From: Escherichia coli
Lineage (GTDB): Bacteria; Pseudomonadota; Gammaproteobacteria; Enterobacterales; Enterobacteriaceae
Length of the DNA: 4,051 bases
Strand: one strand, 5' to 3'
Assembly: GCF_024223415.1 (NCBI RefSeq)
Contig: NZ_CP100507.1
Shown: piece after piece, positions 1 to 4,051 of the stretch
Position numbering within the stretch: the stretch's first letter is position 1
Layout: each line of letters opens with the position of its first letter
Translations under genes and position numbers: made by a program
The notes under the pieces: model-generated
The model's database searches: none
Told to the model about the DNA's origin: nothing
What the model saw: only the letters and a program-made list of their open reading frames with translations

Positions 1-887
1 GGGCGTTAAGTGGTCGCGATTATATATCTAATGCCGCTGTTCATACTAGGAAAAGAACAGTTATATGTCTTGATATCACCAATTTTTATCCCAGCATTAG
101 TAAAAAAGATGTTTGTTCTATTTTTAAAAATTTAATGCGTTTTTCTCCTGATGTTTCTTTATGCTTAACGGAACTTGTGACGTTGAATAATAAGGTCCCT
201 CAGGGTGGGTGCTGTTCTAGTTATATTGCAAATCTTTTATTTTTTAATAGTGAGTATAATCTCTATAATAGATTGAAGTCTATGGGGCTTTCATATTCAA
301 GGCTTTTAGATGATATTACTATATCTTCTGATAAGGATCTTTCATCAGAGGAAAAAACAAAAGTAATAAAACTCGTTCACGGAATGGTGAATCAGTACAG
401 ACTTTCAATAAATGAAAGTAAGACAACGATAGAGCACTCAAAAGATTCGTCTTCTAAACTTAGTGTCACTGGGTTGTGGGTAAAGCATGGTGTTCCTAAG
501 TTAACAAAAGAAAATAGACGTTATATCAGGTACTTAGTTTATATATGTAAAAAACAAGGTGCTTATGAACGTCATACGAAAGAGTACCATGATTTATGGA
601 ATAGATGCTCTGGCAAGGTTGCTCAAATGTCGAGGCTTGGGCATGTCCAGGCGGTTGAATTGAGGGCGATTCTTTCTGAGATAATGCCAGTTTATGATGA
701 TTACAAGATATCTAAATTAAAGTTGATGGCTAAGCACTATCTAAATAAGTTTACGCCGCCTTTAACTGATGATCAGATTAGGAAAATAGATAGGATGCTC
801 TATGATTTTGATATAGTAGGGCGGACTAATAAGAATCTTGCAAAACTATATAGACGTAAGCTCGTGGCATTACTTCCAGATAGGTGA
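1..887 (+). CDS. Retron-type reverse transcriptase, C-terminal 294 codons plus stop (5' part at 3799..4051; the two join in frame if the molecule is circular, giving about 379 aa)
   Basis: The frame of the 135..887 ORF has no stop back to base 3. Translation from base 3: ALSGRDYISNAAVHTRKRTVICLDITNFYPSISKKDV... Contains NAAVH (NAxxH, nt 30-44), LDITNFYPSI (RT motif 1/2, nt 69-98), VPQGG (nt 195-209), an xxDD box reading LLDD (nt 303-314) and SVTGL with the retron-associated VTG triplet (nt 465-473). Stop TGA at 885-887. Confidence 0.9.
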   Translation, partial: ALSGRDYISNAAVHTRKRTVICLDITNFYPSISKKDVCSIFKNLMRFSPDVSLCLTELVTLNNKVPQGGCCSSYIANLLFFNSEYNLYNRLKSMGLSYSRLLDDITISSDKDLSSEEKTKVIKLVHGMVNQYRLSINESKTTIEHSKDSSSKLSVTGLWVKHGVPKLTKENRRYIRYLVYICKKQGAYERHTKEYHDLWNRCSGKVAQMSRLGHVQAVELRAILSEIMPVYDDYKISKLKLMAKHYLNKFTPPLTDDQIRKIDRMLYDFDIVGRTNKNLAKLYRRKLVALLPDR

Positions 888-891
888 TTAT

Positions 892-1095
892 ATGGAAAAT
901 GGATTTGTTAATTTTTATGACCATGTTAAAGGGTATGGCTTTATAAGGCGTGAGCGTGGACGTGATGTTTTCTTTCGGTATGATGATTTTTTGTTTTTAG
1001 GGCATGATGTCGATATATGTAAAGGTATTTTAGTTAGGTTTAAATTAGAAAAAACAGATAAAGGGTTTAAAGCTGTAGCGATTCAAAAGGTATAA
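892..1095 (+). CDS. Cold-shock-domain (CspA-like OB-fold) protein, 67 aa; probable retron accessory/effector protein
   Basis: ATG at 892, 4 nt after the RT stop, preceded by AGGTGA (882-887) as Shine-Dalgarno. Translation MENGFVNFYDHVKGYGFIRRERGRDVFFRYDDFLFLGHDVDICKGILVRFKLEKTDKGFKAVAIQKV carries the two cold-shock RNP motifs (KGYGFI like KGFGFI; VFFRY like VFVHF). The track ORF begins at a TTG at 838 overlapping the RT; the ATG at 892 with its SD is preferred. Confidence 0.85.
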   Translation: MENGFVNFYDHVKGYGFIRRERGRDVFFRYDDFLFLGHDVDICKGILVRFKLEKTDKGFKAVAIQKV

Positions 1096-1134
1096 CATCG
1101 TGGATGTGTCAGCTTGTTTTTATGATATGAGAAC

Positions 1135-1163
1135 TTGAGATCCTTTCTATCTCGTCGTAATCT
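1135..1163 (+). promoter_or_regulatory. RNA II (replication primer) promoter: -35 TTGAGA (1135-1140), 17-bp spacer, -10 TAATCT (1158-1163)
   Basis: Same hexamers and spacing as the pBR322 RNA II promoter as recalled (TTGAGA ... CGTAATCT); predicted start about 1171-1172. Confidence 0.7.
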
Positions 1164-1176
1164 CTTGCTGTGTAAA

Positions 1177-1201
1177 CGAAAAAACCGCCTTGCAGGGCGG
1201 T
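1177..1201 (-). terminator. RNA I rho-independent terminator (stem 1184-1189/1196-1201, loop ttgcag, T-run on the minus strand over 1177-1183)
   Basis: accgcc / ggcggt 6-bp GC-rich stem flanked by an A-run on plus (U-run in RNA I); equivalent to the pBR322 RNA I terminator hairpin. Confidence 0.6.
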
Positions 1202-1278
1202 TTTTCGAAGGTTCTCAGAGCTACCAACTCTTTGAGCCGAGGTAACTGGCTTGGAGGAGCGCAGTCACCAAAACTTGT
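1178..1278 (-). ncRNA. RNA I antisense copy-number control RNA (about 100 nt)
   Basis: Minus-strand start near 1278 (ACAAGTTTTGG, compare pBR322 ACAGTATTTGG) and end at the hairpin plus T-run at 1177-1201; fully complementary to the 5' end of RNA II as in ColE1. Confidence 0.7.
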
Positions 1279-1284
1279 TCTTTC

Positions 1285-1314
1285 AGTTTAGCCTTAACAG
1301 GCGCATGACTTCAA
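1285..1314 (-). promoter_or_regulatory. RNA I promoter (minus strand): -35 TTGAAG (1309-1314), 18-bp spacer, -10 TAAACT (1285-1290)
   Basis: Read on the minus strand: agccTTGAAGtcatgcgcctgttaaggcTAAACTgaaagaACAAG. Position matches the pBR322 RNA I promoter (TTGAAG ... TACACT). Confidence 0.6.
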
Positions 1315-1932: not shown

Positions 1933-2127
1933 TTATATCCCGGTGCGATTTTCCGCTTCAAAGCGTGTCTGTATGCTGTTCTGAAGTTCTTCCGCGAGTT
2001 CGTGCAGCTTCTCACACATGGCGGCCTGTTCGTCAGCATCAAGTGCGTCCAGTTTTTCGAGCAGCGTCAGGCTCTGGCTTTTTATGAATCCTGCCATGTT
2101 GAGTACGGTTTGCTGCTGCTTGTTCAT
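1933..2127 (-). CDS. rop: Rop/Rom (RNA one modulator) copy-number control protein, 64 aa
   Basis: Translation MNKQQQTVLNMAGFIKSQSLTLLEKLDALDADEQAAMCEKLHELAEELQNSIQTRFEAENRTGI resembles ColE1/pBR322 Rop (MTKQEKTALNMARFIRSQTLTLLEKLNELDADEQADICESLHDHADELYRSCLARFGDDGENL, from memory). ATG at 2127-2125, stop TAA at 1935-1933, GGAG about 11 nt upstream, convergent with RNA II as in ColE1. The C-terminal third is divergent. Confidence 0.9.
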   Translation of the reverse strand: MNKQQQTVLNMAGFIKSQSLTLLEKLDALDADEQAAMCEKLHELAEELQNSIQTRFEAENRTGI

Positions 2128-2958: not shown

Positions 2959-3225
2959 TTGGTTAAATTACTATTGGTGAGAAATGAATATTTCAATAAA
3001 AACAATGACTTAAAAACCGTTGCTCGGTTTGACGGTAAAACCTTAAGAGATGCCTTTTCGAGAAAAATAGCGACTTTTGATGGCAAGGTTTTAAGGGATG
3101 CCTCTTTAAAAAAAGTAGCAACCTTTGACGGTCAGAATTTAAGAGATGCTAGTTCAAAAATTATCCTGAGTGCCGATGCTGAGGTTGGGATTGTTGTTAT
3201 GGCCTTTGTAGCTGAGTTGATTTGA
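2959..3225 (+). CDS. Hypothetical small protein with three tandem 16-aa repeats and a hydrophobic C-terminus; non-ATG start (TTG 2959, or TTG 2974 / GTG 2977)
   Basis: Translation ...TVARFDGKTLRDAFSRK IATFDGKVLRDASLKK VATFDGQNLRDASSKI ILSADAEVGIVVMAFVAELI. Differences between repeat copies fall largely on synonymous third positions (Ala gct/gcg/gca; Asp gac/gat; Gly ggt/ggc; Arg aga/agg; Lys aaa/aag; Thr act/acc), a coding-type pattern. No in-frame ATG and no clear SD; in-frame stop at 2950-2952 limits the 5' end. Confidence 0.5.
   Translation: MVKLLLVRNEYFNKNNDLKTVARFDGKTLRDAFSRKIATFDGKVLRDASLKKVATFDGQNLRDASSKIILSADAEVGIVVMAFVAELI
3019..3162 (+). repeat. Tandem direct repeat, 3 x 48 bp (units 3019-3066, 3067-3114, 3115-3162)
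   Basis: Conserved cores tttgacggtaaaaccttaagagatgcc / tttgatggcaaggttttaagggatgcc / tttgacggtcagaatttaagagatgct at exact 48-bp spacing. Confidence 0.85.
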
Positions 3226-3282: not shown

Positions 3283-3310
3283 GTGACAGAAAGATAAAAA
3301 ACTTTATAAT
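3283..3310 (+). promoter_or_regulatory. Sigma70-like promoter facing the retron: -35 GTGACA (3283-3288), 16-bp spacer, -10 TATAAT (3305-3310)
   Basis: Perfect -10 consensus and 5/6 -35 at canonical spacing; predicted start about 3317. Lies about 190 nt upstream of a1, so it may drive the retron ncRNA-RT-csp transcript, but no nearer promoter could be identified by eye. Confidence 0.4.
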
Positions 3311-3507
3311 AATCAGCGAAGCGGGCGAACCACGCCTGGCTCTCGCTCTTTAACAAATGGTTACGTGTATGTTGCGCAAGGAAACCGATGCCTTGTTTTT
3401 AAGGCGATCTCGCATGAGATCATGACCGGCCTGGCCGCTAATTAATGGTGAGAACGCCCCTGAGCGTGTATCAGCACTAAAAGAATAGCGACGATTGTCT
3501 GGCAATG

Positions 3508-3520
3508 TGAGTTAAAAGTC
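3508..3520. repeat. Retron a1 inverted repeat (left arm)
   Basis: 13-bp perfect inverted repeat partner of 3780-3792; does not extend on either side. Confidence 0.6.
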
Positions 3521-3594
3521 CCAAAGAGCCAATAGAGTTTTTCCTTGCTTTCCTACTGGTCTGGCAAAATTTCATAACCAATAGGAGTTGCATC

Positions 3595-3777
3595 ATGTTT
3601 ATTATCAACATCAACATTAACGTAACCAAGAGCTCTTCATCTTGTTCTGGAGACGGTCAGATGAAGAAAAAAAGAGAGGTTGGCTCTCTGGAGGCACTGA
3701 AAAAAACACAGTTTTTGTTTTCTATGTGCTTGATTATGTTTAAAGTAATAGATTACGTATCGAAACTTTTTAACTAA
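3595..3777 (+). CDS. Hypothetical 60-aa ORF lying entirely inside the a1-a2 (msr-msd) region; possibly not translated
   Basis: ATG at 3595 preceded by AGGAG (3583-3587) at 7-nt spacing; stop TAA at 3775-3777. Protein MFIINININV... is low-complexity and Lys-rich. Position inside the putative retron ncRNA argues that it may be fortuitous. Confidence 0.2.
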   Translation: MFIINININVTKSSSSCSGDGQMKKKREVGSLEALKKTQFLFSMCLIMFKVIDYVSKLFN

Positions 3778-3779
3778 TC

Positions 3780-3792
3780 GACTTTTAACTCA
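3780..3792. repeat. Retron a2 inverted repeat (right arm), 6 nt upstream of the RT ATG
   Basis: Exact reverse complement of 3508-3520. Flanked by a near-direct repeat actttttaact (3765-3775) / acttttaact (3781-3790). Confidence 0.6.
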
Positions 3793-3798
3793 AACATC

Positions 3799-4051
3799 AT
3801 GAATAAACCCAGGTTTAATGGAACTCCTGTTGCATCTTTGGATTCTTTATCTGCGATGTTAGGCATAGAAAGAAAAAGATTGGACTGGATAGTCAAGTCT
3901 GTATCGATGTCGTACAAGCAGTTTAAGGTTGAAACAGGGAAGAATAAAAAAGAAAGGCAAATTTTTGAACCCAAGAGATCTTTGAAAGGAATTCAAAAAA
4001 AAATAAATAAAGAGATTTTTGAGAAAATTGATTACCCTCATTATTTGCATG
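3799..4051 (+). CDS. Retron-type reverse transcriptase, N-terminal 84 codons (continues past the window end; see 1..887)
   Basis: ATG at 3799, open to the last base of the window. Translation MNKPRFNGTPVASLDSLSAMLGIERKRLDWIVKSVSMSYKQFKVETGKNKKERQIFEPKRSLKGIQKKINKEIFEKIDYPHYLH is colinear with the N-terminal region of retron RTs (RQIFEPKRSLKGIQ resembles the Ec86-type IYQPSRELKALQG segment as I recall it). No Shine-Dalgarno is evident, so the start is the first in-frame ATG after a2. Confidence 0.85.
   Translation, partial: MNKPRFNGTPVASLDSLSAMLGIERKRLDWIVKSVSMSYKQFKVETGKNKKERQIFEPKRSLKGIQKKINKEIFEKIDYPHYLH

Follow-up and report, generated by a model that had tools for sequence, protein, structure and literature searches.

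The retron operon of this plasmid ends immediately upstream of a ColE1-type primer promoter, and read-through from its last gene, csp, into the primer region probably occurs. We lean towards reading this as leaky read-through past the RNA II promoter that the plasmid tolerates, of a kind often found in compact ColE1-type plasmids, with no dedicated copy-number device involved; its effect would be small. The segment in question, positions 1096-1134, is a short, poorly conserved junction of a retron Se72 operon and a ColE1 primer promoter. A preliminary description of the same DNA had proposed, with fitting caution as a speculation, that read-through from the retron could perturb RNA II folding or RNA I pairing and thereby couple retron expression to copy number. 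One part of that interpretation stands, in that the retron operon, the RNA II promoter and RNA I follow one another with no canonical terminator between them and read-through is physically plausible. The coupling to copy number is unsupported and is not favoured here, as some evidence speaks against a designed feature.

The window, meaning the whole stretch of 4,051 nucleotides that was analysed, is a complete circular plasmid of 4051 bp. Three deposited records, each exactly 4051 bp long, are 100% identical to it, namely pCol of the chicken isolate Ec-RL2-1X and two E. coli plasmids of Japanese origin (NZ_CP066843.1 is among the identical plasmids), and a further ~20 records from E. coli, Salmonella and Shigella are 97-99.8% identical to it. 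The PGAP annotation of the identical record comprises a reverse transcriptase, a “retron Se72 family effector protein”, Rop, MobA and one hypothetical protein. Family searches concurred with this annotation, matching the reverse transcriptase, the effector and Rop and identifying the mobilisation protein as NikA-like/MobA. Small ColE1-like plasmids of Shigella and E. albertii that carry no retron align to the window at 1134-2954 only, with ~95% identity, which places the boundary between cargo and backbone at 1133/1134, where the right edge of the retron cargo touches the -35 hexamer of the primer promoter. The retron cargo runs from 2955 through the end of the window to 1133 and has a GC content of 36%, compared with 51% for the backbone. 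The plasmid, the retron, the replicon and the principle of read-through are all already known.

The retron reverse transcriptase (RT) gene lies on the plus strand and, as the plasmid is circular, spans the ends of the window, with its 5' part at 3799..4051 and its 3' part at 1..887 (stop codon TGA at 885-887). It is annotated by PGAP as a “reverse transcriptase family protein” (442-1581 in record L001) and matches Pfam RVT_1 with 57.7 bits. The last gene of the operon, csp (892..1095, plus strand), starts 4 nt past the RT stop and encodes the 67-aa cold-shock-domain effector of retron Se72, as indicated by the annotation and by matches to NCBIfam NF038236 (retron_eff_Se72; 85.2 bits, cutoff 82) and Pfam CSD (33.4 bits). 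With an RT and a small cold-shock-domain effector directly downstream, the system is a type V retron (Se72 / Retron-Sen1). Retron-Sen1 was found on a small Salmonella Enteritidis plasmid together with a cold-shock-like ORF (Rychlik et al. 2001, as cited in PMC6868368) and is classed as type V (PMC7736814), and Se72 has been described as an anti-phage system that senses RecBCD inhibition and whose cold-shock-domain effector is toxic (bioRxiv 10.1101/2022.08.27.505566). The best sigma-70 promoter-like site of the plasmid, at 3283..3310 on the plus strand (GTGACA, 16 nt, TATAAT), matches 11/12 consensus positions and is, from its position, the presumed promoter of the retron operon. It sits upstream of the retron non-coding RNA region; inverted repeats are listed in 3297-3792, upstream of the RT, and no Rfam family matched a retron non-coding RNA (msr/msd) in the plasmid.

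Downstream of csp, the RNA II (primer) promoter occupies 1135..1163 on the plus strand, with a -35 hexamer TTGAGA at 1135-1140, a 17-nt spacer and a -10 hexamer TAATCT at 1158-1163. Its hexamers and 17-nt spacing are those of pMB1-type vector sequences, and the hexamers read as 8/12 matches to the consensus. Aligning the window to pMB1-type sequence would place the RNA II start at ~1172, just upstream of the 3' end of RNA I at 1176, so positioned that the 5' end of the primer covers all of RNA I. The antisense regulator RNA I (1176..1276, minus strand) was matched full-length by Rfam RF00106 (94.6 bits against a gathering score of 47, E 1.3e-17, model positions 1-102). Its promoter is presumably at 1285..1314 on the minus strand (-35 TTGAAG, 1314 to 1309; -10 TAAACT, 1290 to 1285), by comparison with the RNA I promoter of pMB1. 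The 5' part of RNA II (1172..1290, plus strand) has a predicted fold of -42.1 kcal/mol with three stem-loops complementary to RNA I, at ~1177-1207, ~1210-1238 and ~1241-1269. Rop is encoded convergently with RNA II by rop (rom) at 1933..2127 on the minus strand (Pfam Rop, PF01815, 111.6 bits, and annotation). RNA I, the placement of the primer promoter, Rop and the homologous origin region together identify a ColE1-type replicon. Rfam matches to a second RNAI on the plus strand, to BsrG and to IRES_Bip were rejected, all being far under their gathering scores.

Terminators were sought across the whole plasmid with a hairpin-plus-T-tract scan that combined a d'Aubenton-Carafa-type d score with ViennaRNA energies. 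A consensus terminator scan was not relied on alone, because on neither strand did it pick up the real RNA I terminator, probably an effect of the stem continuing into the A and T runs; the d-score scan was written for this reason and replaced an earlier, more permissive scan in which long structures predominated. The RNA I terminator hairpin (CCGCC...GGCGG, with an A-run on one side and a T-run on the other; 1185..1205, both strands; -11.8 kcal/mol, z -3.2) reached a d of +16.5 on the minus strand, where it serves as a positive control, and of +6.1 on the plus strand. The d scale is conservative, as shown by the Tn3 bla terminator, which works, if leakily, and yet reaches only -10.4.

Between the csp stop codon (TAA, 1093-1095) and the -35 hexamer lies an AT-rich spacer of 39 nt (1096..1134, plus strand, 62% A+T), in agreement with the gap of about 40 bp given in the preliminary description, which had also placed the stop codon, a hairpin at 1095-1107, a TTTTT run at 1117-1121 and the -35 at 1135 correctly. 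Its assertion that no strong terminator follows csp was borne out by both scans of 1040-1175: the consensus scan found no terminator site there on the plus strand, and the best d score was ~ -27, with nothing within 25 units of zero. A compact G+C-rich stem (~5-14 bp, loop of 3-8 nt) directly before a U-tract does not occur in 1096-1171. The 5-bp hairpin ACAUC-GUG-GAUGU (1095..1107, plus strand), which had been called weak, is indeed so, at -1.9 kcal/mol with 2 G-C pairs and a distance of 9 nt from the T-run; it is not above chance, as 15/200 shuffles fold at least as well, and was not found in the homologous spacer of the Klebsiella retron plasmid (L003). The T5 run itself (1117..1121, plus strand) precedes the inferred RNA II start by 51-55 nt, and an equally good reading of it would be as part of an AT-rich region in front of the RNA II promoter. 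A candidate antisense promoter directed into csp (1149-1122, minus strand, 9/12) was rejected, since 9 such matches were found where 7.1 +/- 2.5 are expected.

Because the junction holds no functional-looking intrinsic terminator, a share of the RNA polymerases finishing csp would run on over the RNA II promoter and yield 5'-extended, RNA II-sense transcripts. The d-score scan found no terminator-like sites on the plus strand between the presumed retron promoter and 1185, and the RNA I terminator hairpin in its sense reading, 1185-1200 followed by T5, is the sole positive-scoring plus-strand site of the whole plasmid. As the only such site on this strand, it is the first that read-through from the retron would meet, and the extended transcripts would either stop at this hairpin (1185-1205) or proceed toward the origin.

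One alternative, which we consider unlikely although it fares better than the others, is that transcription is adequately terminated before the primer promoter by a longer structure, so that little of it reaches the promoter. The structure in question is a long imperfect hairpin at 1070..1115 on the plus strand, in which AAGCUG (1070-1075) pairs with CAGCUU (1110-1115), and together with the following G and U5 (1117-1121) it would act as a non-canonical intrinsic terminator. It is this hairpin, and not the 5-bp one, that adjoins the T-run, ending 1 nt before it; its energy of -13.1 kcal/mol and its z of -2.0 in a 59-nt frame speak for the idea, but in a 76-nt frame the fold is unremarkable (z -0.7). 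In the Klebsiella plasmid, too, the homologous region forms a long hairpin, one in which the T-run takes part (-16.6 kcal/mol, z -3.3), and the base stem is mostly kept in that lineage, with one A-U pair changed to G-C and one pair lost as judged by eye, in a comparison of only two lineages that is too small to establish covariation. Against termination at this site stand a d score of ~ -27, far under the controls, an apical loop of ~15 nt, several internal loops and an A-U-rich stem base. In addition, the 5' arm lies within csp, and a ribosome terminating at 1093-1095 would be expected to hinder folding. At best, the hairpin is a leaky terminator or a 3'-end stabiliser, and leaky read-through into the primer region remains the reading that we prefer.

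How ordinary this layout is was assessed in a survey that took one genome per species and searched for the promoter pattern CTTGAGATCC, 8-14 nt, CGTAATCT. After exclusion of cloning vectors, duplicates, loci with short upstream sequence and loci without RNA II homology, 37 natural contexts were left. In 12 of these 37 (32%), the -35 is preceded at a distance of 5-35 nt by the end of a co-directional ORF of 94-275 aa, and by our estimate far fewer than one ORF that long would be expected to end within 40 nt by chance; the ORFs include members of the LprI, TsiV3, DUF943 and DUF2931 families. In none of the 12 does a terminator separate the stop codon from the -35, and 6 of the 12 lack a terminator-like hairpin anywhere before the RNA II start. 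A gene abutting the primer promoter is thus a common state in ColE1-type plasmids and the layout of the window is ordinary: for many natural plasmids of this type it is normal that a gene runs up to the RNA II promoter unterminated, and the presence of such a gene here is therefore no evidence of regulation.

Most of the surveyed promoters contain an inverted repeat, GGATCTTCTTGAGATCC, with the -35 in its 3' arm and two GATC sites. After the repeat, the promoter spacer holds a run of five to eight T, so that the plus strand resembles an intrinsic terminator inside the promoter. GATC sites in the ColE1 primer promoter have reportedly been described before (Patnaik et al. 1990).

The d scores of this embedded hairpin and T-run are +11.5 in pMB1-type sequence and +18.5 and +14.6 in two of the surveyed loci (L090 and L103, respectively), and the element could be a built-in insulator against upstream transcription. 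In two loci without the T-run the stem of the palindrome is two pairs longer, a hint that the palindrome may instead act at the level of the DNA. The promoter of the Klebsiella lineage keeps a 5-bp stem and has no T-run. Common “ori” parts starting at TTGAGATCC would remove the embedded hairpin and T-run. Enrichment of the motif where genes abut the promoter was considered and found unconvincing: at d >= -3 it is present in 6 and absent from 6 of the 12 gene-abutting contexts, and in a looser first survey set, counted by hand, it was present in 7/14 gene-abutting contexts and ~8/27 others. In the window, GAGAAC occupies the position of the GGATCT arm and TTTCTATCTCG that of the T-run, so no embedded hairpin forms. 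The retron plasmid would thus belong to the unprotected half, and because the embedded hairpin and T-run are missing, read-through appears more plausible here than in many relatives and still not unusual; the plasmid may have less shelter from upstream transcription than most of them.

The functional coupling raised in the preliminary description has to be weighed against this background. Extended RNA II-sense RNAs would titrate RNA I, prime replication or occlude the primer promoter, and the retron promoter would in this way set the copy number and hence the dosage of the retron. In engineered ColE1 vectors, read-through into the origin is reported to disturb the balance of RNA II and RNA I and to raise plasmid content, T7 read-through in pET being an example (PMC12853824, describing Mairhofer et al. 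2015), so the coupling idea is mechanistically sound. It gains further from the lack of any terminator separating csp from the RNA II promoter, from a presumed retron promoter that is near consensus (11/12) next to RNA II hexamers at 8/12, and from the absence of the hairpin and T-run typical of the family. We nevertheless hold it to be quite improbable, beginning with the fact that the same layout occurs in a third of unrelated ColE1-like contexts.

The second retron-plasmid lineage bears on coupling in both directions. A Klebsiella/Serratia plasmid of 4261 bp carries a diverged copy of the retron of the window, with an effector that is 64% identical, and its junction is alike: a csp stop, ~40 nt, TTGAGA and then RNA I downstream. 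A junction common to two lineages with effectors this diverged counts in favour of coupling and could reflect selection rather than shared ancestry. Compared segment by segment, however, the spacer is poorly conserved; its identity between the lineages is 60% (gapped), against 80-86% for RT, 74% for csp and 86% for the promoter, and is the lowest of any segment except the RNA I promoter region. The spacer thus appears to bear no sign of selection.

Specific disruption of the RNA II stem-loops by the native 5' extension was also rejected. With the native 76-nt extension in place, stem-loops I-III drop from 0.87 to 0.57 in predicted pairing probability, and shuffled extensions give 0.556 +/- 0.135, in an equilibrium prediction that is weak evidence in either case as RNA folds while it is being made. 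To that extent, no effect on RNA II folding that is particular to the native extension is predicted, which again argues against coupling.

Natural derivatives provide additional evidence that the replicon does not depend on the retron. Two Tn3-related junctions coincide at TATAACAT (1091..1098), which overlaps the csp stop. In a K. oxytoca plasmid (L002) that is 99.7% identical to the window over 1091-2970, a Tn3 fragment replaces the whole retron; the deletion is exact, from 2971 to 1090, and a Tn3 res core is fused at the 1091-1098 site. In another (L006), a Tn3 end is inserted exactly between csp and the spacer, abutting 1091 and 43 nt before the -35, and a third plasmid (L008) has a replicon 95% identical to that of the window without any retron. 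Because relatives exist without the retron or with Tn3 between it and the promoter, the replicon is autonomous and has no need of the retron. Retron plasmids with other replicons share no common logic with the coupling either. In a Rep-type plasmid of Hafnia/Pectobacterium, a related retron operon extends 12 bp into the 3' end of rep, which converges on it, and in an Edwardsiella plasmid a csp homologue, for which no RT annotation is present, overlaps rep by 4 bp; read-through in these plasmids would be antisense to rep. Related retron operons generally seem to lack terminators and to be packed against the replication module of a small plasmid, and consequences that run in opposite directions from one plasmid to another fit compaction better than design.

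A further possibility, that Rho-dependent termination or RNase cleavage past csp spares the primer region without any hairpin terminator, we regard as very unlikely. The plus strand is untranslated everywhere after 1095, and the segment 1255-1332 has a C/G ratio of 1.5, both of which would suit Rho or an RNase. Against it, 1095-1172 is rich in A and U and poor in C (C 18%, G 22%), a tight structure is predicted for 1172-1290, and RNA II, an untranslated transcript of ~550 nt, covers the same region yet must escape Rho to prime replication. Least probable of all, and close to conjecture, is that loss of the embedded hairpin and T-run lets retron transcription feed the RNA II/RNA I circuit, with the RecBCD-guarding defence and the dosage of the replicon regulating each other, and with the csp effector perhaps also acting on RNA I/RNA II folding because its next-best family matches, CspD, CspE and CspA, all well under their cut-offs, include two (CspE and CspA) whose NCBI models are named antiterminator/RNA chaperone.

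If read-through did tune copy number, a natural defence system would be controlling its own gene dosage through the replication primer, which would be relevant to moving retrons onto ColE1 vectors. As it stands, with tolerated leakage the preferred reading, the result is mainly a caution on reading regulation from layout.

A functional parallel is read-through in expression vectors, where upstream transcription likewise enters the RNA II/RNA I region through incomplete termination. There, the polymerase is a very strong phage enzyme, the construct is engineered and the effect has been measured, whereas the window holds an operon that would be transcribed by host polymerase, at whatever strength, on a natural plasmid. 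Vectors of the pBR322/pUC type also resemble the window in having a co-directional gene, Tn3 bla, upstream of the RNA II promoter, with the Tn3 end ~30 nt before the -35, but they carry a hairpin and T5 after bla (d -10.4) as well as the embedded hairpin with T7 (d +11.5), and the window has neither. Relative to the ColE1/pMB1 primer promoter, the window shares the hexamers, the 17-nt spacing, a full-length RNA I, three predicted 5' stem-loops and Rop; it differs from that family in that the upstream half of the inverted repeat is missing, including the second GATC site (the one remaining is at 1139-1142), and in that TTTCTATCTCG stands where the T5-T8 run of the promoter spacer would be. The Retron-Sen1 (Se72) plasmid, finally, is likewise a small plasmid with a retron RT followed by a cold-shock-domain ORF, and a Salmonella plasmid of 4050 bp is 98.4% identical across the entire window. 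There is no substantive difference from the Retron-Sen1 plasmid, and the window is an E. coli copy of the same plasmid family.

Two natural Tn3-related junctions map to the 8-nt sequence TATAACAT (window 1091-1098), which overlaps the stop codon of the cold-shock-domain effector gene csp, as seen by comparison of L006 (about 260-310), L002 (3660-3690) and L118 (580-610). In the retron plasmid variant carrying a Tn3 insertion (L006), the transposon end adjoins window position 1091, with tnpA directed toward the RNA II promoter. In the Klebsiella oxytoca replicon L002, a Tn3 res core (..CCGATAATTTATAACAT..) is joined to window sequence within the 8-nt identity TATAACAT, and with a second Tn3 end at 2970/2971 the entire retron is missing, a deletion.

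The retron-promoter junction itself is kept in both retron-plasmid lineages despite a rearranged region past the origin. The rop gene points the same way as RNA II on the Klebsiella retron plasmid (L003 3680-3871) but is convergent with it in the window (1933-2127), and this difference in orientation indicates a rearrangement past the origin between the two lineages. A csp-spacer-promoter junction identical to that of the retron plasmid was also found in L050, a contig from a metagenome-assembled genome that bears the label uncultured Oscillospiraceae. Mis-binning of an enterobacterial plasmid into this Firmicutes genome is the most likely explanation. In small Rep-type plasmids, genes for related cold-shock-domain retron effectors run at their end into the 3' end of a convergent replication initiator gene, by 12 bp in Hafnia paralvei (L010 3670-4752) and by 4 bp in Edwardsiella piscicida (L011 319-1397), which leaves a terminator no space between the two genes.

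Between the plasmid backbone and the presumed retron promoter lies an 88-aa open reading frame (window 2959-3225) made up of three tandem 48-nt (16-aa) repeats, FDGKxLRDA..., in place of which the 4148-bp plasmid variants (L005) carry another open reading frame. A family search with this 88-aa sequence returned nothing above threshold, the sole match being a weak one to Pfam Bflower_2 (21.5 bits versus a cutoff of 38). Downstream of a small mobA/nikA-like gene, the near-perfect palindrome CAGAATCGCGCTGAGCGCGATTCTG (2899-2923) folds as a hairpin in the terminator/hairpin scan; the plasmid as a whole lacks a relaxase gene. The stretch from the presumed promoter to the reverse transcriptase start is flanked by a perfect 13-nt inverted repeat (3508-3520/3780-3792) and a 17-nt inverted repeat with 88% complementarity (3358-3374/3612-3628), which overlap a 60-aa open reading frame (3595-3777) and are candidate stems of the retron non-coding RNA.

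RNA II promoter and RNA I-like segments also occur on 147-539 kb contigs of Pantoea, Erwinia and Salmonella arizonae (L027 at 8532 and 11393, L028, L034, L071 and L063), with replicon homology over 160-505 nt. Directly adjoining each segment upstream is a small gene of secreted or immunity-like type, from the LprI, TsiV3 or DUF943 family or from a conserved family of ~275 aa. These segments could be ColE1-like modules that became integrated, or else remnants.

Finally, most ColE1-family RNA II promoters (surveyed loci L013-L115) contain the inverted repeat GGATCTTCTTGAGATCC, which includes two GATC sites and the -35 element in its 3' arm, and which is followed in most by a run of T5-T8 in the -35/-10 spacer. 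The motif is absent from the window (1124-1163 compared) and from the Klebsiella retron plasmids. Together, repeat and T-run resemble an intrinsic terminator on the plus strand, inside the promoter, with a d'Aubenton-Carafa-type score (d) of at most +18.5 among ColE1-like loci, and could serve as an insulator of the primer promoter against upstream genes.
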